The notes under the pieces: model-generated
The model's input: only the letters and a program-made list of their open reading frames with translations
The model's database searches: none
What the model was told of the DNA's origin: nothing
Shown: positions 1,828 to 53,378 of the stretch, in pieces
How the letters are laid out: the number at the start of each line of letters is the position of its first letter
Numbering within the stretch: the first letter of the stretch is position 1
DNA from: Verrucomicrobiota bacterium
GTDB taxonomy: Bacteria > Verrucomicrobiota > Verrucomicrobiia > Palsa-1439
Reading direction: 5' to 3'
Assembly: GCA_003152315.1 (NCBI GenBank)
Contig: PLZV01000057.1
Span: forward strand, 200,065 to 264,064
DNA: 64,000 nucleotides
Translations under genes and position numbers: made by a program

Positions 1828-2127
1828 CTCGACAATCCTCCATCGTTATCAATACGCATCTCGAATGCCAGTATCACCAACACTGCCGGAACTCATTGTC
1901 CACGAAGGTCGGATGATCATCATGCCTTCAACGCGTCGGCGGGCATCCCCCACGGCCACGCGGTTTCGCGCAGCCGACTGCGTGCTTTCACGCAAGGAAC
2001 CACAGACGGCCCAGACTTCCCTTCAAACGCATTTCCCTGGCAGCCCTCGTTCCTTGCAGACTGCGCTCAGCGAAGTTCGGTTCGGTAACCGAGATGGACA
2101 GAAGTTTCTCTGTCTGATAGGGGTGAC

Positions 2128-2616
2128 GTGCGCATGTTTATCCGAGCGCTATTTGCTTTCCTTGTCTTGCCGGGCGTCGTCGCCGGGCTGGTTCCGGTTC
2201 TGATTGCCCGGGGCGATACGCATCGTCACGACGGTTCGGCAATGGGCTTCGGCGTTCTCGCGCTCGGTGTCGTGCTCCTCCTGTGGTGCGTGCGAGACTT
2301 TTATGTCTCGGGGAAGGGGACGCTAGCGCCGTGGGATCCGCCCAAGCGTTTGGTGGTGGTTGGACTCTATCGCTTTGTCCGCAACCCCATGTATGTCGCG
2401 GTGCTGACGGTGGTGCTGGGTTGGACCCTTGTTTATGGTTCCACGTGGCTGGCTATCTATCTGGCGGCGCTGGCGATTGGATTTCACCTTCGCGTCCTGT
2501 TTTACGAGGAACCCCGGCTACGCCAGCAATTTGCAGCGGAATGGGCCGCCTATTCCGCAGCCGTGCCAAGATGGCTGCCCCGCTTGGGAACTGCAAATAG
2601 AGAAACACGCTCCTGA
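2128..2616 (+). CDS. Membrane methyltransferase of the isoprenylcysteine carboxyl methyltransferase / phospholipid methyltransferase (ICMT/PEMT) family
   Basis: 162-aa polytopic membrane protein. It carries the family-typical RNPMY motif and an EEP(R/x)L segment. Confidence 0.7.
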   Translation: MRMFIRALFAFLVLPGVVAGLVPVLIARGDTHRHDGSAMGFGVLALGVVLLLWCVRDFYVSGKGTLAPWDPPKRLVVVGLYRFVRNPMYVAVLTVVLGWTLVYGSTWLAIYLAALAIGFHLRVLFYEEPRLRQQFAAEWAAYSAAVPRWLPRLGTANRETRS

Positions 2617-2767
2617 CACCGTGCCCCCTGTCCTTTGCGTGTTGCCTTGTATGGAAAAGAATGTAGCGTTTGATCCAGTCGATGTAAGCTTGCTCAGTAC
2701 GGGAGAGGCAAAAGATGGCAACCGGGATAAGTAGTACTTTTACTGCCTGATATATGTTAGGGCAAAG

Positions 2768-3301
2768 ATGAATCGAGACAGTCCAAACGATGAGGTGAAA
2801 TATATAAAATTCGCTACGCTGATGTTTCTCAGTTTCCTTCTGTGGTCGCAGCAATCGGTAGGGTCACAGCAACAGGCCCAAGCTGCCGGCAACAATGACG
2901 CCCTGCTGGCAAAGTGTACGAAGATTCTCAACTACGGCGAGCAGCAACACCTCTACAAGCCTAGCAAGCTGGATGCGGTAAGTACCTTGGGTCTTTTGGG
3001 CGATGAGCGCGCAGTGCCCATTTTAGTCGAGCATCTCCAGAATGAAGAGAACGACAATCTACGACTACAGATCACAAAAACACTGGGGTGGATCGGCAGT
3101 ACGAATGCAGTGCCAGCGTTGGAGAACGTTTTGCACGACAAGTACCCGCTTTTGCGGCAGCAGGCGGCAACCGCTTTGAAAGACATCACCGGCAAAGATT
3201 ACGAATACGACAAGACGGGGCCGCCTGATATGAAGAAGCTGAGAGAGTTCATCCGTACATCAACAAATGCCGCAGATAAGACGACTGAGAGCAAACCCTA
3301 A
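2768..3301 (+). CDS. Secreted HEAT/PBS-lyase-like repeat protein
   Basis: N-terminal hydrophobic signal segment. Two repeats of the pattern LG(x)2GdxxAVP(I/A)LxxxLxdxxxxxR. The gene sits in a visibly AT-richer stretch (~2620-3320). Confidence 0.5.
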   Translation: MNRDSPNDEVKYIKFATLMFLSFLLWSQQSVGSQQQAQAAGNNDALLAKCTKILNYGEQQHLYKPSKLDAVSTLGLLGDERAVPILVEHLQNEENDNLRLQITKTLGWIGSTNAVPALENVLHDKYPLLRQQAATALKDITGKDYEYDKTGPPDMKKLREFIRTSTNAADKTTESKP

Positions 3302-3436
3302 CCATACGCTTCAACCAGCCGCGACCCGCTGCGTGATGCCGGAGCCGATGACGATCCACATCGATGAGTACCGAAAGAAACAATTGCCCCAGAACAGTCT
3401 TTAAGCACATGGCTGAACATTCGCAACGGGCATCGT

Positions 3437-12340: not shown

Positions 12341-12879
12341 TGCTTAAAGATGGCTCTCAGGTCGGCTTGGAGAACATTCGCTTCGGTGACACCGACGTAT
12401 TTCTGGATAATGTTTTGGTTCTTGTCGATGACAAACAGGGTGGGAATGGCGGTCAGGCCGCCGAAGGCTTGAATGGTGTCGTAGTCGGGCGGGTATAACG
12501 GGAAACCCAATCCCTGCTCTTCGGCAAAGCTCTTCATCCGCTGGGCGCCGGGCTGTTCAAGGACGAGGCCCAGCACCGCCAGGTTCGTCTCGCTGTATTC
12601 CTTGAGCAGGTCGTTCAAGATGAGCGCCTGTCTCTCGCTGGGTTTGTCCCCGGTGGCAAAAAAGCAGACAATCAGCGCCTTCCCTTTGAAGTCGGCGAGC
12701 TTGACGAATTGACCCCGTCCGATCTTTAACGAGAAGGAGGGGGCGGCTGTTGCCGTGCGGGCGTCGTTCGTTGCGCCGAATGCGCGACTCAGCAGCACGA
12801 TCACCACCAACAACACAACGCAGCCCACCGCCAGCGAAATCGTCAGACGGCTCGGCCCCGCATTTGGTTTGGCATTCAT
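12337..12879 (-). CDS. TlpA/ResA-like membrane-anchored thioredoxin (redoxin family)
   Basis: In-frame ATG at 12877-12879 gives MNAKPN followed by a TM anchor. The redoxin fold has a degenerate active-site region. A 4-bp ATGA overlap with dsbD suggests an operon. Confidence 0.7.
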   Translation of the reverse strand: MNAKPNAGPSRLTISLAVGCVVLLVVIVLLSRAFGATNDARTATAAPSFSLKIGRGQFVKLADFKGKALIVCFFATGDKPSERQALILNDLLKEYSETNLAVLGLVLEQPGAQRMKSFAEEQGLGFPLYPPDYDTIQAFGGLTAIPTLFVIDKNQNIIQKYVGVTEANVLQADLRAIFKQ

Positions 12880-13083
12880 TTTTTGGGTTTTCGATACTTC
12901 CTTAATAACCCCAACTGAGAGGACGGTTCCGACCACACTATTACTAAACTCCTCCCCCGTGCGCAAGCGCGGCCTTCCGCCGAGCCAACCGACCGGGGCG
13001 CGCTTGCCGTATACCGCTCCTAATGCAAGTAATACCCCGAAAAGTGGTCTCGGCGGTGCCAAAACCCATCATAAACCCCCCGA

Positions 13084-13118
13084 AATTGGGTTCGTTTTTC
13101 CAAAACGAACCCATTTGC
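13084..13118. repeat. Palindromic pair of the recurring 10-mer GGGTTCGTTT / AAACGAACCC (5-bp spacer)
   Basis: aaatTGGGTTCGTTTttccaAAACGAACCCattt. A third copy lies at 13190-13201. Confidence 0.6.
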
Positions 13119-13453
13119 AAACGTCGCTGCAAACGGCACAAGTTATTTTCGATAAAGGTGATACATCGAAAAGTACGCGAAAACAAAATGGGTTCGTTTC
13201 GTAGAATGGCACATTTCTTTCAAGCATACCTCCGCTGAAGGCGGCCGCGTCCGCCATCGCTCCCCGACCTATGGCAGATACCGCAACTCCTTTTCGGGAT
13301 TTACTATTCATCCATTTCCCCGACCATACCCCATCCTGCACCCCATGTCCAGCCAAATTATCGGTTTACGATTTACGTCCAGTCTGCTGATAAGAAAGCC
13401 TTGTTGAGGCGTTTTGGTGTCGCGGGAAAGTCCTTATTTGCCGCGAGGACGAT

Positions 13454-13921
13454 TCATGGATGAACCTGTTCACCAACTGACTTGAACTGACGAATAGTCG
13501 GATTTGCCCGCTTGCGTTTTCCGATAATTGGTTTCAACCGGCTAAACTCAGCTTTCCACACCCCGATGAGGTTGTATTCCTTACTTAAAACTCCGAGAAG
13601 CACGTAGTCACATTCATGGTCAGAGAATCTGCTCAAACTCCCGCTATTCTTTGGCAATTCACCGTTTTCGCCACGGCGTGTTTTTATCTGAACACATCGG
13701 CCTTTCGCGTCGACGGCGTCAAAGCCCTCGGAGCGGGGGTCTTCTACCATCTTCAATCCAAGTGCTCGACAGACGAAAATCTCTCCAATTTCTCCGGTGA
13801 TGCCGAATTTACGCCCGCAGTTCGTGGCGCGTTGATAAACCAGTTCAGCCTTTATCGCGCTGGCCGCTGCATCCATGATGGCATCAGACACAACGAGGGT
13901 TTTGGTTTCGTGATGTTTCAT
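13454..13921 (-). CDS. Hypothetical protein with PD-(D/E)xK-like nuclease motif
   Basis: The start at 13919-13921 is preferred because it has an AGGCGGAG RBS. The protein carries the segments GFDAVDA...VQIKTR. It lies in an AT-rich islet. The assignment is weak. Confidence 0.35.
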   Translation of the reverse strand: MKHHETKTLVVSDAIMDAAASAIKAELVYQRATNCGRKFGITGEIGEIFVCRALGLKMVEDPRSEGFDAVDAKGRCVQIKTRRGENGELPKNSGSLSRFSDHECDYVLLGVLSKEYNLIGVWKAEFSRLKPIIGKRKRANPTIRQFKSVGEQVHP

Positions 13922-14161
13922 CTTGAATACTCCGCCTGGTTTTGATGCGCGCATAGCGTTGAATTAAAGCGGGACCAGTTTGAAGCGAGCGTAGGGTGCA
14001 GAGATGTGGAGCCGCAGCGGGAATCCGGGCTGGCCGGCGCGTATAGGAGCGGCGACACGAACAGCGACGGAACGCATGGTAGAGGCGTTTTGATGTCGTG
14101 ACGGGGGGAACTCGTGAGCAAATTATTCTGCATTTGATTTTGCACTTCGCACCGATTTATT

Positions 14162-15139
14162 TCAGCCCGTACGGATGCCATGCTCTACGATCAATTTTGC
14201 GAATTGTTCTCCATCCACAAGTTCAATACGGAGTCCCTTTTCCTCAAAGTATTGTTCGGCGGCTTGTACAGCATCTTCACCGATTGAACCAGAGGTGACT
14301 ACCATTCCCAATGTGGCTGACACGGCCTCCATGCCACCAATCAATTGCTGAACGACATCGCGCCCAACCGGCGGCTCGGGACGCCAGTGCTTTGCTTGAA
14401 CGGCTATAATCTGTTGAAACGTACCCGCGACACGAAATGTGGCAACGAGGTCAGCACCTTTGTCCTGACTTCGGGGAATGATTTGCACTTCCTCTGCACC
14501 TAACCCAAGCAGAACCGTCTGGATGAGTCGTTCAAACCCGAAACTCTCCATGCGCCCTCCCTGCAACTCAGAGAGCACTTCACGAATTAAACGGGATTGC
14601 AGATCACTCTCAAATTTGGGTGCCTGCCCTTTTCCTGCCACGGCCAAACATTCTTGGATTTCTCCAAGTAAATCAGTTGCAGTGGCAGAAGTTCCCTGGG
14701 TCTTCATCCGCGAAATGAGTGCGGAGCGGGCGATTTGACGCGGGATTGGCTTTTTCTTGTTTAGCCATTCAACGACACGGCGATAAGATGAATCATCGTC
14801 GGCCTTTGCAGAATTGTAGGTTGCTGGTCCGGTGATTTTCGCCACATAGAATTCGCTGCCATACGGAACAACAACAAGGTCATCGGGTTTCATCTCTCGT
14901 ATGAAACGCCACATGTTGCCAGCCGCGGCACCGGCTTTTCGCCGTGTGGGTTCCTCCGAGTAGTAGGTTTTGTCGAGAATTTCTCGAAACTGTATCCAGT
15001 CTAGTTTGGGGTCAAGCAACCCTTTGGCGTAAGCCCATCCAATAATAATTTGATCCTCGTGTAGGGCTTCGGGGACTTTGTCAATTCCGCTGGGTGCAAT
15101 TCGTAAGACAAATGCGGACTGTTCCTTTGTCTGGTTCAT
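14162..15139 (-). CDS. mrr: Mrr-family (type IV-like) restriction endonuclease
   Basis: 325 aa. The C-terminal Mrr_cat-like block reads DKGADLVATF...AVQAKHWR...VGRDVVQQLIGGM...MVVTSGSIGEDAVQ...LVDGEQFAKLIVEHGI. It sits in an AT-rich islet. Confidence 0.65.
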   Translation of the reverse strand: MNQTKEQSAFVLRIAPSGIDKVPEALHEDQIIIGWAYAKGLLDPKLDWIQFREILDKTYYSEEPTRRKAGAAAGNMWRFIREMKPDDLVVVPYGSEFYVAKITGPATYNSAKADDDSSYRRVVEWLNKKKPIPRQIARSALISRMKTQGTSATATDLLGEIQECLAVAGKGQAPKFESDLQSRLIREVLSELQGGRMESFGFERLIQTVLLGLGAEEVQIIPRSQDKGADLVATFRVAGTFQQIIAVQAKHWRPEPPVGRDVVQQLIGGMEAVSATLGMVVTSGSIGEDAVQAAEQYFEEKGLRIELVDGEQFAKLIVEHGIRTG

Positions 15140-27059: not shown

Positions 27060-28409
27060 TCAATCCTTGTAGCCGTGGGCCTTCGCGGGCCACGCGGCGA
27101 TGAACAGCAAAGTACCCAAAATGGAGATGATCAACAAACCGCGAAACGCCGCGTCCCAACCGTAATATTGCACCAGCGTACCCATGCCCCAGCCGGAAAG
27201 CAACGTGCTCGCGTAACCGAAAATGCTGGTCAAACCGATGGCGGTGGCCGCGGCGCGTTTGGTGGCGAGATTGGCGCACGCGATGGCCAGCAGGCATTGC
27301 GGGCCGTAGACAAAGAAGCCAATGGCGCACAGCAAGCTCGTGGTCAAGAGTCGCGATTGCGTGGGAACTTTCCAGAACAGCAGCACCGAAACCCCGGCCA
27401 GGGCCATGTAGATGACGCAGGCACGCACGGTGCGCCCGCCGAGAAACCGGTCCGAAAACCAGCCGCCGAACATCGCGCCAATAAAGCCGAACACTTCAAA
27501 GCCGGCGATCATCCATTTGGAGTCGACGATCTGGATGTGTTTGGCTTCCATCATGATGGTGGTTCCCCAATCGAACACGGCGTAGCGGAGCGTGTACACG
27601 AAGAAATTGGCGAGCGAGAGCAACCAAATGTATTTGTTGCAAAAGACGTGCTGCCGCACAAAGGCCTTGAAGTCCTCCTCGGAGCCGGTTTCCCCGTCCG
27701 CCATTTGTGTGCCCTCCACTTCCGGTAACCCGACCGACGGAGGAGTGTCTGGAAGCATAAACCAGATGACGATCGCCACGACAACGGCAATGGCCGCGGG
27801 AACGAAGAAACAGAGCCGCCAACCGGCGGTGACGAGAAATCCGCAAAGCAGGACAATCAGGATGCTGCCGATGTTGTGGGAAGAGTTCCAGATGGAGAAT
27901 TTGGTTGCGAGCTGTTTGGGCGGAAACCAATTGGCCATCAACCGCGCGCAGGGTGGAAATCCCATGCCTTGAAACCAGCCGTTGAGCATCCAAATGACCA
28001 GGAAGATCACCAGGGCAGAACTGAACCCGAACCAGATATTGAGGAGCGCGGAAGCAATCAGGGCTGTGGCCATGAAGACACAGGCATTCGCGCGGTCGGC
28101 CAGAAAACCATTGAGGAACTTGGAAATGCCGTACACCACTCCATGCAGCGTGAGAATCAATCCGAGGCCCTGCTTGGAGATGCCCAGTTCTTTGCCGATG
28201 ATTGGTTGGACGACGCTGAAGTTCTTGCGGACGAAATAAAACGTCGCGTAGCCGATGATGGAGAAAATCAGGACTCGCGTTTGCCAGCGCCGGTATCTCT
28301 CGGAAATCTCCTTGGGGTCCGTCAGGATGACCGCGGCCGGAGGAGCCGGCTGGAAGGCTTTCAGGAACCAACCGAGGGGTTTTGCGGCTGTCGATTGATG
28401 GTCCAGGAT
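27060..28409 (-). CDS. glpT: MFS organophosphate:phosphate antiporter (GlpT/UhpC family)
   Basis: GlpT-like sequence throughout. The frame is open up to the stop at 28413-28415, but there is no ATG/GTG/TTG upstream of the TTG at 28158-28160. The homologous N-terminal region (FLKAFQPAPP..YRRWQ..) is encoded upstream of that TTG, so the true start is non-canonical (CTG/ATC) or the sequence has an error. Confidence 0.7.
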   Translation of the reverse strand: MLDHQSTAAKPLGWFLKAFQPAPPAAVILTDPKEISERYRRWQTRVLIFSIIGYATFYFVRKNFSVVQPIIGKELGISKQGLGLILTLHGVVYGISKFLNGFLADRANACVFMATALIASALLNIWFGFSSALVIFLVIWMLNGWFQGMGFPPCARLMANWFPPKQLATKFSIWNSSHNIGSILIVLLCGFLVTAGWRLCFFVPAAIAVVVAIVIWFMLPDTPPSVGLPEVEGTQMADGETGSEEDFKAFVRQHVFCNKYIWLLSLANFFVYTLRYAVFDWGTTIMMEAKHIQIVDSKWMIAGFEVFGFIGAMFGGWFSDRFLGGRTVRACVIYMALAGVSVLLFWKVPTQSRLLTTSLLCAIGFFVYGPQCLLAIACANLATKRAAATAIGLTSIFGYASTLLSGWGMGTLVQYYGWDAAFRGLLIISILGTLLFIAAWPAKAHGYKD

Positions 28410-28731
28410 TCGCTACCTCGGAAAACACCAAGAACACACCATTGACGCAATTTCGTCAAGTTTCAAACCCAGCGGCAACTCGGGCCTCGCGCAAGGCCGC
28501 TTCTCTTCGCACCGGCTCGTGATGGTCCGCACTCCTTCGTCCGTCGAACCTCTCCTGCCACCCCCTCGTCCCCAGGACGCCGTCGGCGTCTGGATCGATG
28601 ACCACGCCAGCCTCTTCCGCGTCTGGAGCTGGTACTAGCTCTCGTCGCATGTTTTTTTCCCGCACTAGTAGAACGGGCGTACCGCCCATTTACCTCCGAC
28701 TACCGTCGCCTTCCGATGCGGCTTCCAGCCC

Positions 28732-28830
28732 AAACGAACCCGATTCTAAAAATCAAGTTGCGCCCTCTAACCAACTGAGGCCCTGCCATATACGCACGCA
28801 AATTCGCGTATTCAAATCGGGTTCGTTTCG
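28732..28830. repeat. Inverted copies of the same AAACGAACCC ... GGGTTCGTTTCG motif flanking ~77 bp
   Basis: AAACGAACCC at 28732-28741 and GGGTTCGTTTCG at 28819-28830. They lie in the intergenic region upstream of the GlpT-like gene. Confidence 0.55.
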
Positions 28831-29126
28831 CAGAAACGCATGTTTTTGCGGGGTCTTCTTCCCCGTCAAGAAACGTCGCCGACTTCTCCAATTCAAAGAA
28901 CCGAACGGATCATATCCATCTCACAACATCGTGTCGAGTAAAAAAGTATCTACTTACGATAACCAGGAGGAATCCTCACTCGGAAGGGGACGAAGCGTTG
29001 ACTTGATTGGCTTGCCCGCCACAAAGCCGTCGAGGATGTTCGCAAAGAAAAGGGATCACCAGTCCGCTCCAGAACGTGGACTGGACAGGTGCTTTCTGGC
29101 GCAAGGAAATGTAACCGGCCAACGGC

Positions 29127-31247
29127 CTAGTGGAGGACGTGGAAGTCGCCGAGGGACTGATCGTTGGGGCCGGCGGGCATCCAGTGGAAGGACGGGGTCC
29201 GGACGTTGACACTCGTGATGTGGGCGCTGGCGGCGATGCCGAAGGTGAGACCACCGTTCGCGGTCACGACGCTGGAAAGCTTAACGTCCGCAATCGTCGT
29301 GGCCGCGACATCGCTATTCACAAAACCGTTGACGGTCGAACGGATGCTGAGGGTGCGGAGATGCACTCCTTCCAGGAATGTGCCACTGGCGAGCGGGTTG
29401 CTCGGATCATCCGGCGTGTAACCGACGAAAATAGTGGAATCAATCATCTGCAAGGCGCTAAGGGAACCGATGCTGCCGTTGGCGATGGCGATAGTGGCAT
29501 TGCTGATCGCGCCGGACACGCTGAGTTGCGCGAGAGCCAGTTGATTCGTGGCGATACCCGCGCCGGAGACGGTGATCGTTCCATCACAATCGCCGGGAAT
29601 CCCATTCCGTTTGTCACCCTTGATCGAGATGTTGCCGATCCACGGTGCGTCGATGGTGGCGTCGACGCCAAAACGCGCGGCGCTCAGGCTCTTGAGCCGG
29701 CTCCCAATGGCAATGGCGCTGTTGTCGTCAAGATTGTGGGCCATGATAGTGGTTTTCTGGCTTTCAGAACCGTTGGCCGTAATGGACGCGCCGTTGAGCA
29801 GGTCGTGGATCTTCAATTGCCCCAGGTAGTCGCCCAACTGGATGCCGGTCCCGACCACGTCAAAATCCCGCGCGTCGATGAGGCGACATCCTCCCTCGCC
29901 GGTGATTTGGTCAATCTGCAGCGAACCGGTTCCCGCCCGGTTCTTCTTGACCTTGATCGTGAGAACGCTGCTCGCGTCGGTCGCGGCCAGAACCAGATCA
30001 AGGGGCTCCAGTTGCGAGACCGTCATCGCCCCCGCAAACTGCAGCTTCAGCGTCACCACGCCCCCACCCGAATTCGTGAAGGTAAACGTTTGCGGCCTGT
30101 CGTTGACGATTGTTACCACGGCGGTTGTCTGGGTTCCGAGGACAGCTCCCACGGGATTGAACAACGTCACATTGACAGTCTTGTTGCTTTGGAAGGTCAT
30201 GAATTTCTCGATGGTGAAACTGAAGCTCGATCGCGACGTGCCCGGCGCAAAGACAAGCGTGCCATGTGTGCTGAGATAGTCGACCCCGTTGCTCGCGGTG
30301 CCGTCGCTCGTGGCGTAATCGACGCTGTCTTGCGTGCTGGCATCTCCAAACCGGATCGCCGTGATTGTGGCGTGGCCCACATGTTCGTGGACGTTCTCAG
30401 CGGCCGCGCTCAACTGGATGACGTGCGGCCCCGTCGCCACAATCGTCAACGTCGCATGCACCGGGCTGCCCAGGGTGGCCCCGTCAGCGGGATTGGTGAG
30501 CGTCAGTTTCACGGTCTGGTTGGTTTCCAGTGCGCCCGGCGGCAAAATCGGAATGGTGACCGTATTCGTAAGGACGCCATTGGCAAACGTGACCGTCCCA
30601 GTTGTCGTCGTGTAATCGATACCGGCCTTCGCTGAGCCGTCGCTGGTGCTAAAATCGACTGCCACCGTCCCGTTTGTCGCGCCAACTCGGACCAGCGTGA
30701 TGGTCGCAACCGCGTCCGTATCATCCACCGAGTACGATGCCTGCGCAAACTGCAGTTGTTCCACCTCGTCATTGATAATCGTGAGCACGGCGGTTGACGG
30801 GCTGCCCAGGACAACGGGCCCGGTGGGATTGGACAGGGCGAGATTGACCGTCTGCGTGGATCCCGCCACGCCATTGTTTAACAGGCCAATGTTGACCGTG
30901 TTGGTTACGGCTTCCGTAGTATTGGTGGGGTTTTCCGCGGCGAAAGTCACAGTGTTGGAGACGGCGACGTAATCCACTCCCGCCACGGCCGTGCCATTGC
31001 TCGTCGAGAAATCTACCGAAGCTGTCGCATCCGTGCTGCCCGAGAAGATGACGGTGATGAGCGCGTTACTTTGGGACGCAGCCACCGTGTAAGCGGACTG
31101 GCTAAAGACAACGGTTCCCGTCTGCCCTCGCGCCAGACCCGGGAAAAAAACGGCGGCGCAGCCGGCGACGAGTAATGAAATGAGAAATCCGCGCGGTCTG
31201 AGAACCCCAATACCTGAGCCGAAGCCCTGACGCCGTGTATTCTGCAC
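29127..31247 (-). CDS. Secreted Calx-beta repeat protein (adhesin-like)
   Basis: 706 aa with a signal peptide. It has several repeats of the Calx-beta signature (..VDFSTSDGSAKAGIDYTTTTGTVTF.., VDYATSDGTASNGVDY..GTLVF). Confidence 0.6.
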   Translation of the reverse strand: MQNTRRQGFGSGIGVLRPRGFLISLLVAGCAAVFFPGLARGQTGTVVFSQSAYTVAASQSNALITVIFSGSTDATASVDFSTSNGTAVAGVDYVAVSNTVTFAAENPTNTTEAVTNTVNIGLLNNGVAGSTQTVNLALSNPTGPVVLGSPSTAVLTIINDEVEQLQFAQASYSVDDTDAVATITLVRVGATNGTVAVDFSTSDGSAKAGIDYTTTTGTVTFANGVLTNTVTIPILPPGALETNQTVKLTLTNPADGATLGSPVHATLTIVATGPHVIQLSAAAENVHEHVGHATITAIRFGDASTQDSVDYATSDGTASNGVDYLSTHGTLVFAPGTSRSSFSFTIEKFMTFQSNKTVNVTLFNPVGAVLGTQTTAVVTIVNDRPQTFTFTNSGGGVVTLKLQFAGAMTVSQLEPLDLVLAATDASSVLTIKVKKNRAGTGSLQIDQITGEGGCRLIDARDFDVVGTGIQLGDYLGQLKIHDLLNGASITANGSESQKTTIMAHNLDDNSAIAIGSRLKSLSAARFGVDATIDAPWIGNISIKGDKRNGIPGDCDGTITVSGAGIATNQLALAQLSVSGAISNATIAIANGSIGSLSALQMIDSTIFVGYTPDDPSNPLASGTFLEGVHLRTLSIRSTVNGFVNSDVAATTIADVKLSSVVTANGGLTFGIAASAHITSVNVRTPSFHWMPAGPNDQSLGDFHVLH

Positions 31248-37527: not shown

Positions 37528-37603
<76 letters not shown>

Positions 37604-37912
37604 GATTTTTGGTCGTGCTAGGCGGGGAGTTAGCGGTTCCCTGCACCAGCAACCCGCTACAGCTGGGCCGAATTCCTCGCCGAGGCGGCGATGTGGGCGA
37701 GCAAACCGCGGGGCGGCGTCGAAGGCCGGGTCCGATGCAATGGTTGCTTGCGAACCCCGCCAGGGTCGGAAGACAGCAACGGTAAGCTTGATGTTCCATG
37801 TGCCGTCGGGGTGCCTGGCTGGAGCTTTAACCGCGGCGCGCGAACCGATGTCGTTTGTCGAAGCGAGGTGCACGGCCATTCTTTCGGTGTGGAGACTGTT
37901 TGAGGTAAATTC

Positions 37913-43434: not shown

Positions 43435-44042
43435 ACGGGATCGATGCGATCATTTTTGATTTGGGCAACGTGTTGCTGGCGTTCGACGAATCGCGCGCCG
43501 TGGAACGCCTCGCCGCGCGCACGGGCAAGACGCGGCAGCAGATTGAGGAGTACGCGCGTGGCACGCCGCACGTGACCGAATTGGCGCTCGGCAAAGTGAC
43601 GAAGCTGCGGTTCTTCCGCACCGTCGCCAAAGATCTGGCCTTCGACGGCACGTACCAGGAGTTCGCGTTGCTTTGGTCCGACATCTTTACGCCCATCGAA
43701 CCGATGATCGCGCTGGCCGAATCGCTCAAGAACCGCCTGCCGCGCCTGCTCCTCTCGAACACCAACGCCATCCACATGGACTACGTCTTCGAGCACTACC
43801 CGTTTCTGCAGGACTTCGACGCGCATGTGCTCTCGCACGAAGTCGGTCTGCTGAAACCCGACCCCGCGATCTTCCAACACGCGCTGCGCACGTCCGGCCT
43901 GGCCGCCGCCCGCACCGTTTTTCTCGACGACATCGCCGCCAACGCCGAGGCCGCCCGCCACGCCGGGATGCAGGCCATCCATTATAAAAGCCCCGATCAG
44001 GCGCGCGCAGAGTTGACGAAACTCGGTGTGTCGCCTATATAA
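43431..44042 (+). CDS. HAD-IA family hydrolase
   Basis: Motif I IIFDLGNVL, motif II SNTN, motif III/IV FLDDIAAN. It is not the DIEGTT-type enolase-phosphatase. Confidence 0.7.
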   Translation: MNGIDAIIFDLGNVLLAFDESRAVERLAARTGKTRQQIEEYARGTPHVTELALGKVTKLRFFRTVAKDLAFDGTYQEFALLWSDIFTPIEPMIALAESLKNRLPRLLLSNTNAIHMDYVFEHYPFLQDFDAHVLSHEVGLLKPDPAIFQHALRTSGLAAARTVFLDDIAANAEAARHAGMQAIHYKSPDQARAELTKLGVSPI

Positions 44043-44062
44043 CAAGGCCACCACTTTCCGGT

Positions 44063-44137
44063 TCCGCAGTAGCTCAATGGTGGAGCAGCGCACTGTTAAT
44101 GCGCGGGTTGTAGGTTCGAGTCCTACCTGCGGAGCCA
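44063..44137 (+). tRNA. tRNA-Asn (anticodon GTT)
   Basis: Acceptor TCCGCAG/CTGCGGA, D stem GCTC/GAGC, anticodon stem GCGCA/TGCGC with loop CTGTTAA, T arm GTAGG-TTCGAGT-CCTAC. Discriminator G and CCA. Confidence 0.9.
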
Positions 44138-44331
44138 ATTTCCATCTCGTTGCGCCGCAACGAGGGTTGCCCTCGCAGGTGGGTCAAAAGGGTCAACTGT
44201 CAGGGAAAGTGCCAGGGAAACCGTCGCGAAGCAGCCCTTACGGGGCAATTCGCGCCAATCCGGCCATACCCCGCCAGAACCCCTTAACGCGAAATTTCGC
44301 GCGCCTCTATTATCCTCAAACGGAGAGAGGC

Positions 44332-45402
44332 ATGAAATATCGTTACTGGAAATTCAACCGGAAAGGCACCTGGTACGTCGAAGACGCCGTCACCGGTAAA
44401 CAGGAGAGCCTGCGCACCTCGGACGAGAAGGAAGCGGAGCAACTGCGACACGCCAAGAACGAGGCCACGCGTGACCGCGCGCTTAGCCTGGCGTTGGGGC
44501 GCGCGTATCTCGGCGCGCACGATCCGAAAATGGCGAAGCGTACCTGGGCGGACGTCATGGCGGAGATGTCCAATCACGGGGAGCAAACCACACAGGACCG
44601 CTGTCGGCGTGCCATGCGCAGCAAACCGTTCGACCGGATCCGCCACCAGCAGTTGGTCGAGGCGACCGCCAAGGATCTCTTGGACGTGCTTCGATCGGGA
44701 ACGTCCTCGACGAACCACTTCCTGCGGCGATTGCACAATCTGGCCATCGACCTGGGCTGGCTGCCATGGGTGGTGCTTGCGCCCAAACTGTGGCCCAAGA
44801 TTGAAGCGAAACCCAAGCGAAGTATTACGCATGACGAGCACGTACGCATCGTTTCCGACGACGAGAATCTGGAACGAAGCCTGTATTACGAGGTGCTGTG
44901 GGAGATCGGTGCCTCGCAAAGTGACGGCGCCAAGCTGACGGCGGAAAACGTTGACTGGTGCACCGGCCGGATGGCGTACATCAGGAGCAAGACGAAAACG
45001 AATTGCACGCTGGAAATCGGGCAACGACTTAAAGCCATTCTGAAACAGTTGCCGCCATACGGACTGCTGTTTCCCAATATCGCTCGGGTACCGGCCAAGG
45101 ACCGTGCGGGCGAATTTCGTCGTCGCTGCCGGCGTCTGGGGATCAAGGGCGTGACGCTTCATTCCTACCGGTATGCGTGGGCAGAGCGGGCCGAGACATG
45201 TGGCTACCCGGAGAGGTATTCGCAACAGGCCCTCGGCCATGCCAGCAAGGCTGTCCACCGAGCCTATGGCAGACACGCTCAAGTGACCCTTCCCTCCCTG
45301 GAGGAGTACGAGCAGGCATGCACGGAGCGGAAGATTATTCCGATCAGACGCCAAAACGGTGACGCTGTCGGGATGTCACGCGTAAATGTCAGGCGGCGGT
45401 GA
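44332..45402 (+). CDS. int: Tyrosine-type site-specific recombinase/integrase
   Basis: ATG at 44332. The C-terminal catalytic region has R...HxxR...Y spacing (LHSYRYAWAERA...LGHASKAVHRAY). It is located next to the tRNA. Confidence 0.8.
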   Translation: MKYRYWKFNRKGTWYVEDAVTGKQESLRTSDEKEAEQLRHAKNEATRDRALSLALGRAYLGAHDPKMAKRTWADVMAEMSNHGEQTTQDRCRRAMRSKPFDRIRHQQLVEATAKDLLDVLRSGTSSTNHFLRRLHNLAIDLGWLPWVVLAPKLWPKIEAKPKRSITHDEHVRIVSDDENLERSLYYEVLWEIGASQSDGAKLTAENVDWCTGRMAYIRSKTKTNCTLEIGQRLKAILKQLPPYGLLFPNIARVPAKDRAGEFRRRCRRLGIKGVTLHSYRYAWAERAETCGYPERYSQQALGHASKAVHRAYGRHAQVTLPSLEEYEQACTERKIIPIRRQNGDAVGMSRVNVRRR

Positions 45403-45733
45403 GCGCCATTTTCGCGCACGGCTTTTCGTTCTTGGATTTCCAGTGCTTCGACACGGCCTTGGTGGCCTTGCTCAACCAGACGGTATCCTTCGTAAGCCCC
45501 TCGACATAGACAGCTGAGAAGTATTTGGGGGCATTGGGCGCGGGGGAGCCAAGCGGCTTGAGAAGGCCTGCCCTAATCAGGATAGGAATATCATGGCTTT
45601 CAAACCCCAGCACCCACCCCGCCTCTTCTGAGGTGAGCCGCGCGGGCCAGTGAGCCAGCTTCAATATATCCTCGCGTGTCGCCAAATCCGCCTCGCATCT
45701 ATACCCGTAGGTCGTTTGCCTGCGGTCGCGCAA
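45389..45733 (-). CDS. Hypothetical protein
   Basis: ORF only. It overlaps the integrase 3' end by 14 bp. Confidence 0.3.
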   Translation of the reverse strand: MRDRRQTTYGYRCEADLATREDILKLAHWPARLTSEEAGWVLGFESHDIPILIRAGLLKPLGSPAPNAPKYFSAVYVEGLTKDTVWLSKATKAVSKHWKSKNEKPCAKMALTAA

Positions 45734-46017
45734 CTAGCTCCATGAGGGAGCTTGTGCGACATGCAAATTCTACCGCAAGATGAGGCGCTTGGCGAGAATT
45801 AAATAAGTCGTAAACCTCTGAACAATATACCATTGCGAAGCTAGATGTCAAGCTCGCTTTTGGTCCGGTCGAGAAGCTGCGCGAAGCCGAAACGAACCTA
45901 CGCAAAGCAGATGGGCGGCGGCAAATGCTCAGGGGATGGGCAGGCCTAGCTTGAGCATTTGCGCAAGATGTCTGACAATTACGAGCCGCACCAAAATTAG
46001 CGACTGACCGCTCTTAA

Positions 46018-49000
46018 TCAGGCCGCGGTTTGCCGAATTTTGAAGATTAGTTTCCAGAACTCGACAGCGACCTGCAACGGTAGGCGGTACGCCAATGTGG
46101 TAAACCCCGGCTGTAGATTATTTGCTACGGCAGGCCACTCGACTATACCTTCAAAGAGAAAATCTGCCATTTCGCGGGCCGCTGTCGCTGGGTCGTGGAA
46201 TCTAAGCGCAAGTAGTTCGGCACATTCAATGAATGTCGCCATATGGTTGGGTTTTGTTTGCATTTCTTTTTCTGACAAAGCAATGCGATGAAACAATTTC
46301 TGTACCTCTGCCTTCACCCGCTTTGCTGCCTCCCGATCATCTAAGCGGTTAACTTGGTTTATAATCGTAAAGAGCGCCACCCTCAAACTGCTTGGCTCCA
46401 ACGCCTCTAGGTCGACAAAATTGATGCTCATTATAAAGGTTCGTACTTTATCTCGTAGTGAATCTGGTGCTTTCGTTCGGCCAAGTGTGCCAAAGGCGAT
46501 GACCCATTTGCTTGGCTGATCTGGTTTTCCAAGCAAGTCCGACAATACTGCCTCTGCGTTTGTCAGAATTTGATTTGAACCAAGCAACTTCGCTGGCTCC
46601 GGACCGATTAACGAGGCCAGCGTTTCGCCTTGGTCGCCCCCAAGAAAAGACCCGAGGGCGTTTTCCTGCAGGGCAGGGTCAGCTAGGAATTCGATCCGCT
46701 GTACCCACTTGTCTTCAACTTTGAAAAAGCACAACCCTACTGCTTTCTCTTCCAGTCCGGGGAAGTCAGTGGAGCGGATTCGGGCTTGGGTGAGCGCCGC
46801 AGCAATGCCGCGCGATAAAAATGTCGAACGATTTATTTGGCGCGGATGGGCAACGTCACCGCGCAACTCGTCTCGTGACCCAAATAACTCGTTGGGCACG
46901 GGTTGTGCGGCTTTCTCGAAGAACTCCGCTACTTTCTCCTTAGAACTGCGTTTCCGTAGCAACGTATATAAACGAGTGGCATGAAGCCAACTTGCCGAGA
47001 GAATCGCGAACGAAGACCAATTCTTCGTATCATGGCGGTGTTCTAAATGTAAAACGGTCCAACGCAGAATCTTATCGAGGGCAGAATAATCTATTTCACC
47101 TTCCGGTCCCAAAAGAGAATCGAGAAGTCGCTGAGCGATGGGTCTGCGTTCCGAGCCACCGCTCAAGGCAATACCAAGCAAGTGTAACCGTGACACGGGA
47201 GAAACTGAATGGCTTAATGCATCCTCTAGCCAGGCCGATTGCTCAGTGAGCGACAGTTTTGCGTGCGCCTCCCATATGGCGCCTGGAACAGCTATTGGTA
47301 GTGAAGCGACCCGCAAAAAGGCTTCGGCGAACCCTTCTTCATCTACGAGAGATTTTGCTGCGGCTTCAAACGCTGTCGCGGATTGGCCGGGCTTTGTCTC
47401 TTGGGGCAGACGGAGATGATTCAATAAACCCTGGGATGGGGGCGGCTCAAAATCTGAGAGGTGCAATGATTTCCGCTCGGCCAACTGGGCTTCGAGGTTG
47501 GCATAGAAGGAAGCCGCAGAATTGTTCCTCCAGTGGCGTATTCGTGTGATTCGTTCGGATGGATCGCCCAGTCGCGCCAGACGCTGCACTTGTCTCTCGT
47601 GAGTCTGGGCGTTGCAATCAAACCATTCGCGGTGTGTTATAAGAACTTTTTCCCGTGTCAAAACATCGGGCCTCAAAACCTCAAACAGTGGGTCAGACAT
47701 CCTAAATGTTTTTTCTGGCGTGCCAGTGCTTAATCGTAGCGTTTCACCATCTGCGTCGGAAATGAAGCGCATGGTGAATTCTTGCAGTGGATCGCGTGCC
47801 GTTATTCTTTCTACGCTTCCCTGCACCGCTTTCTTTGCGGCTTGCCAAAACTCCTTATCTTCAAATTTAAAATTGGCAACGACTACAACACGATGCTCTT
47901 TTATCCCGATCCTCTTCAGTGCCCTGGACGAAATGCTCATGTGACTTCGGATTGTTTCTGGCAAGTTGGCATACAGGTCCGACAAGAGAACCTGCAGAAC
48001 TTTGTCCCGTTTCTTTGACTTCGACTTAGCGGGAGACATGGCCTCAAAAAGCCTGCTGAGCTGCCTCCCAAGGGTCTTGTTGGATTCCCAATCTGTTGAG
48101 AAGCGGTTCTGTAACCAATCAAAATAGCCTGCGCGCAGCATCGGACCCTTTTCGTCTGTGCTGCTTAGTCTTGTCGGAGCCTGAATGTACAAGAGTGCAA
48201 TGGTCCCCCCCATTAACTCACGTTCCTGGGCACTATGAGGAGCAAGACCGATTAATCGAGGGGTTGCGCCGCAATCATACCAGAGATTATAAAGTATCCA
48301 ATCCGCGCGCGCTATAGCTGCGCCATCGGTAATCTTCTCATCACACCAGAGGGAGCGAATCGCTTCCCCAGCGGCAGCAAAGAGACCAGTCAAAACATTT
48401 ATCTCACCCGGTTGGCTCCCTTTTCCCATCTGCGCCGGCATACGCAGAGAGTCTCTGTCCTGTAAACACGACGCTACGTAACGCCGTAATACCGACAATT
48501 CTGGAGTTTCGATGATTTTGCCGTCCCTTTCAGTTGCATTATGGAGATCAAAAAGAATCTCCTCTTTCTCGAGGGGGACGTATCTGAAGTTCCCTTTACG
48601 AAGCTGATGTAGTTTCCGGAAGTAACTAGTTTGGTCGAGAACTTTCCGCCTGCGCAATTCATTCAGTATTTCAAGTAGGCCGACCACCGGCAGTTCACCA
48701 CACTTGGAAAACGCATTTATAAACCGGTCGTCAATCCAGACATAGCTTCCTGATGCGCTTTTGGCGTGCAACAATTCTTCCAAACAGGCAGCGTCGGGAC
48801 CCCACGTTTGAGTTGCGCGATCCGGTTTCAAGCTATTACTGACCCCGATAAACTTGTATCTGTCAGCGGCTAAACCGAGGTTTATTCGGTCACGCAATTG
48901 GCGCAGCCATTCTTGAAGATTTCTCTGTTCTTCCACGCGTTTGAGCCCGGCTCTGATATTCGCCGCTTCCCTCGGTTCGATATACACTTGGAAATTCTTG

Positions 49001-50763: not shown

Positions 50764-52700
50764 TGTGACACCTCCAATTCAACTGCAACTTCGCGAATAT
50801 TCTCCTCTAGGTTGCTGATGTAATCTCTGGCTGAAGCCCAAAGAATGGCAATCGGATGAGTGGGGTCTCTCTCCAATAACTCGGCGCAGTACTTTTGCGC
50901 CTCTGCATGTTTTTCAGCATCATTGGCAAGACATGCAAGTCGCCATCCCTCAATTTCTCGTCGCGCTATCGGCTCCATACCATTCGGATTCAATAACTCG
51001 GCGAAAAGTGCTTCGGATTTCCTTAGCTGTTTTAGAGTGTCCTTGTCTCGCTTTACTAATTTGAGATCGGCCGGAACTGGCCAAAATTTTGGAATACGTT
51101 TGAATAAAGCCGGGGACAGACTATCAAAGTAACCGATGATCGCTGACGCGAACCTCACGCTAAACCATTGGGGGTGCTCAGTAACGGCCAACTGAATCTC
51201 TCGCTGAGCGTCTGTCAGCCTTCCCTCTCCTAATAATGCGAGTGCATACAAACGTCTAGATTCCGTATCCGGCGTAATACCAATGGGCGGTTTTGGATAT
51301 TCATCGAGTACATCCCGTGATTTTCCAGAGTCCAATAAAAAGGCGAGCTTAACATTCCAAGCGTCCAGGCTTTTGACTTCCTGAAGGTTTGCCAGAGCGG
51401 TGCGTGCGCCTTTTTCGTGATAGGTGATTAGCGCTTGCAACACCGGCATGCCTCTGTCTCCGTCTTGTTTCTGAGCCTCAAGGGCCAAGGTTTTGGCAAT
51501 GTTTACATCGCTATCTAGAGCGAGAACTAAACTTGCTTCCAATCGAAGCGCTATCGCGCGAGTGGTGGGAGTCAAGATCTTCCAATCTTGGCCTTCCTTC
51601 AATGCCTTTAGTTTTTCCATGGCTTCGCGTCCACCGCTGACTCGCCACCCCTCACGAATTGACTCGATGTCACGGACACGGGCGGCGCTCAATGCTTGTG
51701 CTAGCTTTTCAAATTGGTCGTTGATGAATTCGGAAGCAAGCGGCGAGAGTAAACGTTTTTTTCCGTCCTCATCTTCCTGCGGCGAAATGGTGGCGGCTGA
51801 AATACTGCTTTGAGTTATTGAGTTTGGACGAAGGAGGTCTATATCACACCCGTCATAAAGAAAAAGGTCCAGATATACGGCAGCAGCGCAAGAGGCTAAA
51901 TCGTGAAACCTGTCCCCCTTGAATTCGTCGGCGAAGTCCGAAATGCCTCGTATCACCATCCATGGTTTGGGTGGGTCCCGATCCTCACACGCCCTAGAAA
52001 AGCCGCCCGCTTCCATTTCTGCGGCCCGGATGCCTTGGTGATACTTGCTCATCTTATCAAAAGCCGAACCGTCTCGAAGTAAGTCATCGGCAGAAGCTAT
52101 TGTGCAATCGCGAATGGTAGGAATTGTTGCCACGTTGTCGCGGTATACATCTTCCTCACCTTTAGGCAGTTCTATTGCTTTCCCAAATTGATTTGTGAAT
52201 TGAACTGCAAAGCTCTGACCGTCGAGACGAAAATTCTGAATCATCTGCGTGACGGGGGGACGGAGGGCTCTATTAACGGGACGAGGATGTCTCTCGCCAT
52301 TTTCGACAACATTTATGCTCAAGTCCGCGATATCGCGAGCCACCGCCACGTCACCAATTTTTAACTTTCCTCGCCAACCCGCTGCAATGCCTAAGAGAAT
52401 TAGGATGGCAGGGTCATAATATGTGAGTAGGCGCGTTGTCGCTGCGCTGGCGCTGGCTTGCGAGGCGCTCCCAATGCAGTGAACCACAATTGTTAGATCG
52501 CGATCTTGAAGCTTTGAGTAGCGGGTGGTTTCCCAGTACAGGAAACCGTCTTTAGGAATTCGATCTCGTGATTCGATCTTTAGTACGCGCTGAACTGCGT
52601 GCAGTTCCGTCCCGATGACGGTCAAGACAGCCACGTCGATTGTTTTAACTTCGTGCACGGGTCGTGTAACGCGCTCCTCCAAACCCATAAAATACAGCAT
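50760..52700 (-). CDS. PNP/MTAN-like nucleoside phosphorylase/nucleosidase domain fused to C-terminal TPR-like helical domain
   Basis: The N-terminal ~270 aa align by eye with E. coli MTA/SAH nucleosidase (Pfs) motifs. VAVLTVIGTELHAV matches IGIIGAMEEE. CIGSASQASASAATTRLL matches SGIGKVAAALGATLLL. ILILLGIAAG...KIGDVAVARD matches VIINTGSAGGL..KVGDIVVSDE. AAEMEAGGFSRAC matches AVEMEATAIAHVC. MVIRGISDFAD matches VVVRAISDVAD. The C-terminal ~370 aa are helical-repeat-like. Confidence 0.7.
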   Translation of the reverse strand: MLYFMGLEERVTRPVHEVKTIDVAVLTVIGTELHAVQRVLKIESRDRIPKDGFLYWETTRYSKLQDRDLTIVVHCIGSASQASASAATTRLLTYYDPAILILLGIAAGWRGKLKIGDVAVARDIADLSINVVENGERHPRPVNRALRPPVTQMIQNFRLDGQSFAVQFTNQFGKAIELPKGEEDVYRDNVATIPTIRDCTIASADDLLRDGSAFDKMSKYHQGIRAAEMEAGGFSRACEDRDPPKPWMVIRGISDFADEFKGDRFHDLASCAAAVYLDLFLYDGCDIDLLRPNSITQSSISAATISPQEDEDGKKRLLSPLASEFINDQFEKLAQALSAARVRDIESIREGWRVSGGREAMEKLKALKEGQDWKILTPTTRAIALRLEASLVLALDSDVNIAKTLALEAQKQDGDRGMPVLQALITYHEKGARTALANLQEVKSLDAWNVKLAFLLDSGKSRDVLDEYPKPPIGITPDTESRRLYALALLGEGRLTDAQREIQLAVTEHPQWFSVRFASAIIGYFDSLSPALFKRIPKFWPVPADLKLVKRDKDTLKQLRKSEALFAELLNPNGMEPIARREIEGWRLACLANDAEKHAEAQKYCAELLERDPTHPIAILWASARDYISNLEENIREVAVELEVSQ

Positions 52701-52720
52701 GAAACGGAGTAGTTCCAGCG

Positions 52721-53101: not shown

Positions 53102-53113
53102 TATAGTTAATCT

Positions 53114-53365: not shown

Positions 53366-53378
53366 AGTCTTGGAACGA

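Follow-up and report, generated by a model that had tools for sequence, protein, structure and literature searches.

Within a 64,000-nucleotide (nt) stretch of a Verrucomicrobiota bacterium (GTDB lineage Verrucomicrobiia, Palsa-1439; assembly GCA_003152315.1, contig PLZV01000057.1, positions 200,065 to 264,064 of the forward strand; hereafter the window), a 10-nt sequence, GGGTTCGTTT, occurs in five exact copies at two intergenic sites. We interpret these copies, with moderate confidence, as parts of two members of a dispersed family of gene-less accessory elements that is linked to a protein-coding gene ("gene X"), is probably transcribed, and carries the motif as a protein recognition site. 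The repeat family is apparently both undescribed and widely distributed. Loci in other sequences are cited by L numbers throughout.

Recurrence of the motif in the window

Exact copies of GGGTTCGTTT begin at 13088 (+), 13103 (-), 13190 (+), 28732 (-) and 28819 (+), and all five lie between genes. Chance would supply 0.18 +/- 0.41 copies in the window, and none of 100 shuffles got to five, so that the recurrence is as non-random and as intergenic as a preliminary description of this DNA had proposed; its coordinates were correct, and the gene positions confirm that copies stand upstream of tlpA-dsbD and of a GlpT-like gene. The similarity extends beyond the 10-mer, as 13171-13216 and 28800-28845 share 74% identity over 46 nt, with 13190-13201 reading GGGTTCGTTTCG. 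At the second site, 28732-28741 (-) and 28819-28830 (+) form an inverted pair 77 nt apart. At the first, 13088-13097 (+) and 13103-13112 (-) together read GGGTTCGTTTT-TCC-AAAACGAACCC; this is indeed the perfect palindrome that had been noted at 13088-13112, built as an 11-bp stem with a 3-nt loop (12 pairs in folds) and not with the 5-bp spacing given for it.

The 8-mer GTTCGTTT occurs six times in the window, at the five exact sites and at 45890, and nowhere else. The sixth occurrence lies in a one-mismatch 12-mer that had been listed as a further family member. One-mismatch matches occur at chance frequency (nine found in all against 5.8 expected, with 14 of 100 shuffles reaching nine), and a module profile built from other genomes, leaving the window out (nhmmer), matches the window only at the two sites of the exact copies and not near 45.9 kb. 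We dropped the 45888 copy because one-mismatch hits are at chance level and the profile match is restricted to those two sites.

A motif core shared across phyla

A longer motif of 19-25 nt, AAWYGGGTTCGTTT(G/C)GCA(A/G)AAA, has the 10-mer at its core, the motif core also being written TGGGTTCGTTT(G/C)GCA(A/G)AAA; within the motif string TGGGTTCGTTTGGCAAAAA the GGGTTCG is invariant. The motif is asymmetric, and its edges are sharp on both sides, information content falling to zero right outside about 25 nt. Scanning a genome collection, one genome per species, with the pattern AAWYGGGTTCGTTTN5AAACG returned more than 105 matching stretches, against about 17 expected by chance by our own arithmetic, and several genomes gave more than one. 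Among the matches listed, these spread over many phyla: the 80 titled matches include about 12 from Verrucomicrobia, about 20 from Planctomycetota, about 17 from Acidobacteriota, about 14 from Alpha- and other Proteobacteria, 5 from Anaerolineae and 4 from Zixibacteria. The motif core is thus common to at least six phyla or groups (Verrucomicrobia, Planctomycetota, Acidobacteriota, Alphaproteobacteria, Chloroflexota and Zixibacteria). A non-coding sequence of 19-25 nt that stays near-invariant from Verrucomicrobia to Acidobacteria, Alphaproteobacteria and Chloroflexota is unusual, with few parallels known to us other than universal signals like parS.

Copies take three arrangements: same-orientation arrays with irregular 19-110 nt spacing (e.g., at least eight copies in L070), two overlapping copies that make a perfect hairpin and, in Verrucomicrobia, inverted pairs at a fixed start-to-start distance of 76 (75-80) nt. 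The preliminary description had allowed that the motif might simply be part of a larger known repeat family. A larger family it is, and we found no prior description of it: Rfam (release 15) matches only a signal recognition particle (SRP) RNA and two tRNAs in the window, with nothing at E <= 10 in 12800-13500 and nothing at E <= 1 in eight array loci, and literature searches with the motif sequence strings and "KTSC" returned nothing relevant and no paper with the sequence.

Several other identities for the motif were considered and set aside. A conserved short-peptide start (ATG/TTG-GGT-TCG-TTT, or MGSF) was rejected, the reading frames having a median of 26 aa and no conservation past residue 7, and the start codon being replaced by TCG or ACG in some copies. 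Neither a sigma-54 or extracytoplasmic function (ECF) sigma promoter in the motif nor an integration host factor site in the spacer agrees with the spacings and invariant bases, as judged by eye against the consensus sequences. Phage origin was likewise rejected, a 15-base version of the pattern giving 40 mostly chance matches in viral contigs; gene X itself has one distant viral relative, which lacks the motif. A CRISPR array (clustered regularly interspaced short palindromic repeats) is ruled out, as array copies are degenerate and irregularly spaced by 19-110 nt, the pairs in the window are inverted, and no cas-like neighbours were found.

A separate context was seen in Zixibacteria and in metagenome-assembled genomes (MAGs) of the Planctomycetes-Verrucomicrobia-Chlamydiae (PVC) group (L078, L083, L089, L109, L123, L126, L146, L148), where the motif lies 7-8 nt after a TATAAT box within a conserved repeat of about 180 nt. 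Downstream genes of this repeat differ, the motif strand and not its complement would be transcribed, and a hairpin with a U run follows directly.

Coupling of the motif to gene X

Clustering all open reading frames (ORFs) near the 105 genome matches yielded a single recurrent family, the unannotated protein that we call gene X, with an N-terminus like KQIAANRRNAxKSTGPRTxxGKxxSxxNAxKHG. The association also holds in the reverse direction: 75 of the 80 metagenome loci that encode gene X have a motif copy no more than 110 nt after the stop codon, on the opposite strand, and among 44 unique sequences the distance between the stop and the far motif edge is 27-43 nt in 42 (mode 31 nt). All three independent members drawn from the protein database have the motif just past the stop codon, and the coupling persists down to 41-45% protein identity. 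The logo from gene-X-adjacent copies, which is free of search-pattern bias, reads AAnWTGGGTTCGTTTGGCAAAAA. A second copy often lies about 80 nt beyond the first, in either orientation, and in L225, L228, L230 and L235 the 3' flank of gene X consists of a reverse-complement copy, 76-78 nt, a forward copy and an overlapping reverse-complement copy, which is exactly the architecture of the first window site read on the minus strand.

Gene X is an all-helical family of about 300 aa (predicted fold with a mean predicted local distance difference test score of 72.7 and a low-confidence basic N-terminus). The family is very large, with 34,875 clusters at 50% identity (E <= 1e-3) and 4,079 matches in a word-indexed search; nothing in Pfam, NCBIfam, PADLOC or PHROGs matches it, and PDB offers no informative relatives. 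A small KTSC-domain ORF precedes it in 39 of 84 loci, and an ORF of about 330 aa encoding a coiled-coil protein is also usual upstream; the KTSC ORF (64-79 aa), the coiled-coil ORF and gene X have overlapping stop and start codons (L152-L157 and gene-X loci generally). Gene X often sits among restriction and toxin-antitoxin genes. A short variant of gene X is present at least six times in one Phycisphaerales genome, where the repeated segment stops at the outer edge of a motif copy. As one of the larger families with neither a Pfam model nor a solved structure, gene X gains in the motif a first functional handle, a candidate nucleic-acid partner. Further upstream, a Kinase-PolyVal ORF was seen in L154-L157, and Type ISP restriction or toxin-antitoxin genes lie near gene X in L152 and L154.

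The position directly after a stop codon also invites two further readings. In the first, the repeats would be intrinsic terminators or attenuator hairpins, as the hairpin at 13088-13112 and the CGTTTC-GCA-GAAACG followed by CATGTTTTT at 28824-28848 (+), flagged by a terminator scan, might suggest. Many gene-X-adjacent copies have no hairpin at all, however (e.g., GGGTTCGTTTGGCAAAAATGCCC), the hairpin of site 1 lacks a T run on either strand, orientation with respect to genes is random, and a single-stranded-looking core conserved across phyla would be left unexplained; we regard termination as a very improbable role. In the second, the repeats would be cassette recombination sites like the attC of integrons, the gene-less sites being empty cassettes. 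This would suit an inverted repeat of about 100 nt that immediately follows an ORF, the location of units in variable, defence-island-like regions, and a co-variation of flanks (see below) that fits a folded single strand. Yet no integrase occurs among the neighbours of 105 genome loci and 84 gene-X loci, the core shares only AAC...GTT with the R''/R' consensus (RYYYAAC...GTTRRRY), neither sites identical between phyla nor same-orientation arrays spaced by 19-40 nt are typical of attC, and the units have a predicted promoter of their own, which together leave the attC reading with very little probability.

Architecture of the two units

Judged from its sequence, the window holds two complete gene-less units, about 13070-13378 and about 28715-28965, both on the minus strand and each predicted to be read towards the next host gene (Table 1). 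Unit 1 is upstream of and co-oriented with tlpA (start 12879) and dsbD, and unit 2 stands in the same relation to the GlpT-like gene of the major facilitator superfamily (MFS). Both follow the Verrucomicrobial module, in which copy 1 is followed after 76 nt by copy 2 in inverted orientation and, in some modules, by a third copy with which a hairpin is formed. The complete unit, which occurs in many Verrucomicrobia, also has the promoter-like box described below and a leader that is variable. The fixed-spacing pairs of the window are 13113-/13189+ and 28742-/28818+, and site 1 adds the extra hairpin-making copy. Start-to-start spacing of 75-80 nt was found in 25 doublets (plus L240), and the copy 2/3 hairpin of site 1 recurs in L045, L048, L054, L061, L134, L145, L139, L129, L095, L225, L228, L230, L235 and L240. 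The sequence of copy 1 in unit 2 is identical in L055, L068, L095, L097, L102, L117 and L130.

Table 1. Window coordinates of the two units, their parts, the discarded 12-mer and the segment surrounding unit 1
Feature	Position	Strand	Remarks
Unit 1, whole: upstream box, predicted promoter, leader, copy 1, 76-nt-spaced copy 2, hairpin-forming copy 3	13070-13378	-	profile match 13075-13213 (-), E = 6e-33
Unit 1, imperfect palindromic box TAAATCGTAAACCGATAATTT	13355-13375	-	local form of the family TATCG-N5-CGATA box, just upstream of -35
Unit 1, predicted sigma-70-type promoter TGGACA-17 nt-TATGGT	13323-13351	-	consensus match; points at motif copies and tlpA
Unit 1, copy 1, "full" type as beside gene X: AAAATGGGTTCGTTTCGTAGAATGGCA	13186-13212	+ (reverse-complemented within unit)	matches gene X 3' flank in L230
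Unit 1, spacer, copy 2 to copy 1	13117-13185	.	76-nt start-to-start distance, conserved in family
Unit 1, copies 2 and 3, overlapping as perfect hairpin AAATTGGGTTCGTTTT-TCC-AAAACGAACCCATTT	13084-13116	.	DNA fold -12.4 kcal/mol, z = -4.7
Unit 2, whole: box, predicted promoter, leader, copy 1, 76-nt-spaced copy 2; without copy 3	28715-28965	-	profile match 28730-28847 (-), E = 1.5e-16
Unit 2, box TATCGTAAGTAGATAC and predicted promoter TCGACA-17 nt-TATGAT	28909-28961	-	-35 at 28932-28937, -10 at 28909-28914; 10/12 consensus matches
Unit 2, copy 1, "full" Verrucomicrobial type AAATCGGGTTCGTTTCGCAGAAACGCATGTTTTT	28815-28848	+	includes small hairpin CGTTTC-GCA-GAAACG
Unit 2, copy 2 GAATCGGGTTCGTTTGGG	28729-28746	-	76 nt start-to-start from copy 1
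One-mismatch 12-mer CGAAACGAACCT	45888-45899	-	not counted in family
Lower-GC segment absent from L238	12979-15284 (2.3 kb)	.	Mrr-like endonuclease gene 14162-15139, DUF6998 gene 13454-13954 (-), unit 1

With gene-less modules oriented as they are after gene X, about 17 of the 21 examined carry a promoter-like box, TATCGTAAATCGATA-TTTT-GC-TGGACA-N17-(GG)TATAGT, 105-460 nt upstream of copy 1 and always directed towards the module. This conserved box (in short, TATCG-N5-CGATA..TGGACA-N17-TATAGT) has its palindromic TATCG-N5-CGATA part kept at about 20 non-orthologous loci, and the same promoter-like box lies 300 nt upstream of gene X in L236. In the window it is found only twice, at 13351-13323 and 28937-28909, both on the minus strand.

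Folding of the modules points to pairing between their two motif copies. Across 14 modules RNAalifold predicted only a stem between copies 1 and 2, with a 66-nt loop devoid of conserved structure, and single-sequence folds of both predicted window transcripts contain the same stem. The variable bases that adjoin the core (ATTT/AAAT, GATT/AATC, ACCG/CGGT) match between copies 1 and 2, and flank complementarity runs over 3.75 consecutive bases, compared with 1.92 +/- 0.38 in 2000 partner shuffles, in which the observed value was reached at most once (maximum 3.77). This co-variation fits selection for pairing and also fits a co-duplication of both copies.

The same architecture could belong to small regulatory RNA (sRNA) genes that the host keeps and that do not move, each unit giving an sRNA of about 200-250 nt with the motif as seed or protein-binding site, and the gene X mRNA carrying the same element in its 3' untranslated region. 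A conserved promoter box argues for selection on expression, and the fixed geometry with co-varying flanks, the predicted stem between copies 1 and 2, and a motif and spacing that are kept while spacers diverge would all suit such genes. They are harder to reconcile with units gained and lost between close relatives, with the same-orientation arrays (19-110 nt spacing) of other phyla, which are unlike sRNA genes, and with a spacer that has no predicted conserved structure; a clear terminator is not present and no Rfam family matches. We consider the sRNA reading unlikely; it overlaps with our favoured explanation and does not exclude it.

Other features of the units were seen in passing. The spacer of unit 2 holds, at 28757-28776 (-), CCTCAGTTGGTTAGAGG, a perfect look-alike of a tRNA D-arm, about 20 nt before the GGGTTCG of copy 2. 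A tRNA or tRNA-like gene made of these two parts was ruled out, ARAGORN and Rfam calling only tRNA-Thr and tRNA-Asn in the window. Small minus-strand ORFs across the units (95 aa and 63 aa) were rejected as genes, the reading frame of the motif differing between the two sites. Many units (13233-13300 (-) in the window; L134, L095, L096, L097 and L145 elsewhere) carry in their leaders a second, GC-rich Verrucomicrobial repeat of the ATCCGCCTTCGCCAAGGCTTCGGCGCGAC or GCGACGGCGGAT type. In one unit, that of L145, the insertion of an IS5/IS1182-like DDE transposase gene (2092-3408; DDE_Tnp_1 and DUF772) separates the promoter box from the motif module.

Presence and absence of units among relatives

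We compared the two sites with relatives by blastn and by inspection of orthologous loci (L238 and L240 for tlpA; L242, L243 and L244 for the MFS gene), a comparison that the preliminary description had proposed and that gave a divided picture: units are missing beside the same tlpA-dsbD and MFS genes in the closest relatives, and L240 and L244 carry one. At the tlpA locus, window segments 16616-15285 and 12978-10642 have counterparts in L238, the closest relative (78% nucleotide identity), in which the ECF-sigma side and the tlpA side lie 10 nt apart with no motif. Unit 1 is therefore inside an inserted island, namely the 2.3-kb segment that L238 lacks, with a GC content of 0.50-0.53 and with its Mrr and DUF6998 genes assigned by Pfam match. 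Site 1 falls between the DUF6998 gene and tlpA/dsbD, in a copper/metal-resistance neighbourhood. The unit that stands upstream of tlpA in L240, a more distant relative, belongs to a different sublineage, 68% identical to the window unit and 82% to that of L134; orthology of the two tlpA-upstream units is not supported, this identity being no higher than to non-orthologous copies. Placed between the ECF-sigma/Cus cluster and tlpA-dsbD, the inserted segment itself has the look of a small insertion of defence type.

Site 2 is flanked on one side by the 3' end of a Calx-beta gene (29127) and on the other by the GlpT-like MFS gene. Where the window has 622 nt with unit 2, L242, whose MFS gene is 92% identical, has a GT87 gene and no motif; L243 has neither the GT87 gene nor the unit, and L244 has the GT87 gene together with a homologous unit upstream of the MFS gene. 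Set side by side, window 28505-29127 and L242 2634-3934 differ in that the GT87 glycosyltransferase gene is missing from the window, with the 622 nt that include unit 2 in its stead.

Elsewhere, none of the module loci in other genomes encodes relatives of the genes that flank the units in the window. Modules of the site-1 subfamily are 64-83% identical, spacer included, at non-orthologous loci of different genomes. Of 20 modules, 12 are co-oriented with the gene upstream and 9 with the gene downstream, and 5 lie between convergent genes. Some contigs start (L004) or end (L151, L199, L221) in or beside the motif, consistent with a repeat that breaks metagenome assemblies. Near-identical contigs are present in several metagenomes, and annotation places the closest homologues of DsbD and of the MFS protein in Verrucomicrobiae.

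These comparisons bear directly on the proposal of the preliminary description that the palindrome is a dimeric transcription-factor operator, which would control tlpA-dsbD, the GlpT-like gene and other targets. The perfect palindrome does stand upstream of tlpA-dsbD, both units are upstream of and co-oriented with the next gene, and the distant relatives L240 and L244 have a unit upstream of tlpA and of the MFS gene, respectively. Regulation of these genes would nevertheless leave much unaccounted for: the closest relatives lack the unit at both loci, the L240 module is of another sublineage and at 68% identity matches the window unit at most as well as non-orthologous copies do, neighbouring genes are unrelated across genomes, and position and orientation over the 20 modules are random, with no promoter-side preference. 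The motif is moreover asymmetric and sharp-edged, and its one consistent position is 3' of a gene, gene X. We therefore regard the operator as a poorly supported and quite improbable explanation.

The second proposal had been that the inverted pair separated by 77 bp represents the terminal repeats of a miniature element, a reading in which a classic miniature inverted-repeat transposable element (MITE) would be moved by cut-and-paste through a DDE transposase. Part of this stands, as the pair does belong to a dispersed, multi-copy repeat family whose presence varies among relatives; a Phycisphaerales segment of about 260 nt is bounded by outward-facing copies, the repeat ending at the motif edge, and the edges of the site-1 hairpin also face outward. 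In the 76-nt pairs themselves (28732/28830, 13113/13189), in contrast, the conserved AAWY edges face inward, and the pair is part of a larger unit of about 250-300 bp with its own predicted promoter. A target-site duplication, which the preliminary description had advised looking for at 28732 and 28830, is absent, the outer flanks TTCCAGCC and CAGAAACG not being duplicated, and none was found at unit ends or segment junctions either. No transposase is associated, neighbour clustering having given gene X alone: the one DDE transposase seen is the IS5-like insertion within the L145 unit, and the products of the only related unit with genes (gene X, the KTSC protein and the 330-aa ORF) match no transposase family. 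As same-orientation arrays also misfit cut-and-paste movement, we rate a classic MITE as improbable.

Proposed mode of action and comparison with known systems

The explanation that we favour, accessory units partnered with gene X, treats the units as gene-less, non-autonomous relatives of the gene-X cassette that may be transcribed, bound by protein and mobile. Each unit would be transcribed on the minus strand from its own predicted promoter, and in the resulting RNA copies 1 and 2 would pair into a stem of 13-18 bp closing a loop of about 66 nt. A protein acting in trans would recognise the motif, as DNA or as RNA, and would maintain or spread the units; the most plausible candidates are gene X or its operon partners, encoded at another place in the genome. 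If tlpA-dsbD or the GlpT-like gene is affected at all, this would be incidental read-through from the unit promoter and not dedicated regulation. Going further, gene X with its KTSC and coiled-coil partners and the motif units might constitute an undescribed accessory system of at least six phyla, RNA- or DNA-guided or RNA-partnered, in which a helical protein lacking known fold relatives would recognise a sequence of about 19 nt at the 3' end of its own gene as well as dozens of gene-less loci with predicted promoters, either to mobilise these or to use their transcripts; this extension we offer as a tentative and rather doubtful possibility.

Several observations weigh against the favoured explanation. 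The promoters are predicted by consensus, site 2 shows no evident terminator beyond copy 2, and the folding z-scores of the predicted transcripts are only about -2.1. An RNA stem cannot be universal, since second copies in other phyla often share the orientation of the first, at a similar spacing of about 80 nt. Gene X has no recognisable catalytic or DNA-binding domain, and neither gene X nor a remnant of it occurs in the window (tblastn and profile search of six-frame translations). Among the loci compared, neither an exact empty site nor a target-site duplication was found, the replaced or inserted segments being bigger than the unit. Units within one genome have diverged spacers while motif and spacing are conserved, which speaks against a recent burst of copying.

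Among known systems, the closest analogy is with the repetitive extragenic palindromic (REP) sequences, their hairpin-forming doublets (REPINs) and the REP-associated tyrosine transposases (RAYTs), followed by MITEs or palindrome-associated transposable elements (PATEs) with their insertion sequence (IS) elements. REP sequences resemble the present family in being dispersed intergenic repeats of about 25 nt that occur singly, clustered or as inverted doublets about 70-80 nt apart with a possible long hairpin, in having one cognate gene flanked by the repeat, and in keeping no fixed relation to neighbour genes; the 25 fixed-spacing inverted doublets with complementary flanks and a predicted stem reproduce this pattern. 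They differ in that REP sequences are species-specific, whereas the motif core here spans at least six phyla, that the units here carry a conserved promoter-like box, and that the cognate gene is all-helical without an HUH/Y1 domain, Y1_Tnp (PF01797) not being associated in the 105 genome and 84 gene-X loci. A link to RAYTs was accordingly rejected, the sole Y1_Tnp seen (L150) being flanked by a different repeat. That gene, split and RAYT-like, lies at L150 1100-2280 in a Chthoniobacter MAG between palindromic repeats of the TCGCGGAGCGA type, a separate REP system beside a gene-X cassette.

MITEs and other non-autonomous IS derivatives are similar in that gene-less multi-copy relatives share end sequences with a gene-carrying unit, presence is variable and assemblies break there, but here the motif edge points inward in the 76-nt pairs, the motif stands at only the 3' end of the gene-carrying unit, and there is neither transposase nor target-site duplication. 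Membership in both the REPIN-RAYT and the MITE classes thus fails for want of an HUH or DDE enzyme, of species-specificity and of a target-site duplication. The IS200/IS605 TnpB or IscB systems with their omega RNA or reRNA, and PATEs, share a conserved non-coding element directly 3' of a protein gene and many gene-less copies elsewhere, transcribed there and probably transcribed here; gene X differs from TnpB and IscB in having no RuvC or other known fold, no pair of left-end and right-end hairpins was found, and no guide-like variable segment was demonstrated. The parS/ParB system offers a short cross-phylum site with several copies per genome, sometimes in arrays, beside the operon of a presumed binding protein. 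Here the motif is asymmetric, copies are scattered and not origin-proximal as far as contigs show, and the gene X operon has no ParA/ParB homology and no recognisable partition NTPase. Operators of transcription-factor regulons are likewise intergenic, sometimes palindromic and recurrent upstream of several operons, but differ from the present family in promoter-side preference and conserved targets, both lacking here, in that the closest relatives are without the unit, and in that the strongest association here is with a gene's 3' end.

In practical terms, the repeat marks variable regions of soil and peat bacteria, and the units put predicted promoters upstream of host genes, here tlpA-dsbD and the GlpT-like transporter.

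Other features of the window

The GlpT-like MFS gene (27060-28160, -) has an in-frame TAG at 28413-28415 where its 92%-identical orthologue P0242 has Trp (ERWQIL vs PR*RIL), and the next canonical start is 85 codons downstream. The gene may have a disrupted N-terminus or a non-canonical start, or the start of the orthologue may be mis-called.

The stretch from 44063 to 54572 comprises a tRNA-Asn followed by a tyrosine-integrase gene (in ORF 44026-45402), a low-GC block (about 0.51) and a second integrase gene (53370-54572), and is probably an integrated island. Its low-GC block encodes a protein of 1581 aa with a faint HTH_upstream_double_PIN match and a PNP_UDP_1 protein of 646 aa. At 37528-37875, a tRNA-Thr is directly followed by a large, Bacillus-type SRP RNA (162 bits) in this Verrucomicrobial genome.

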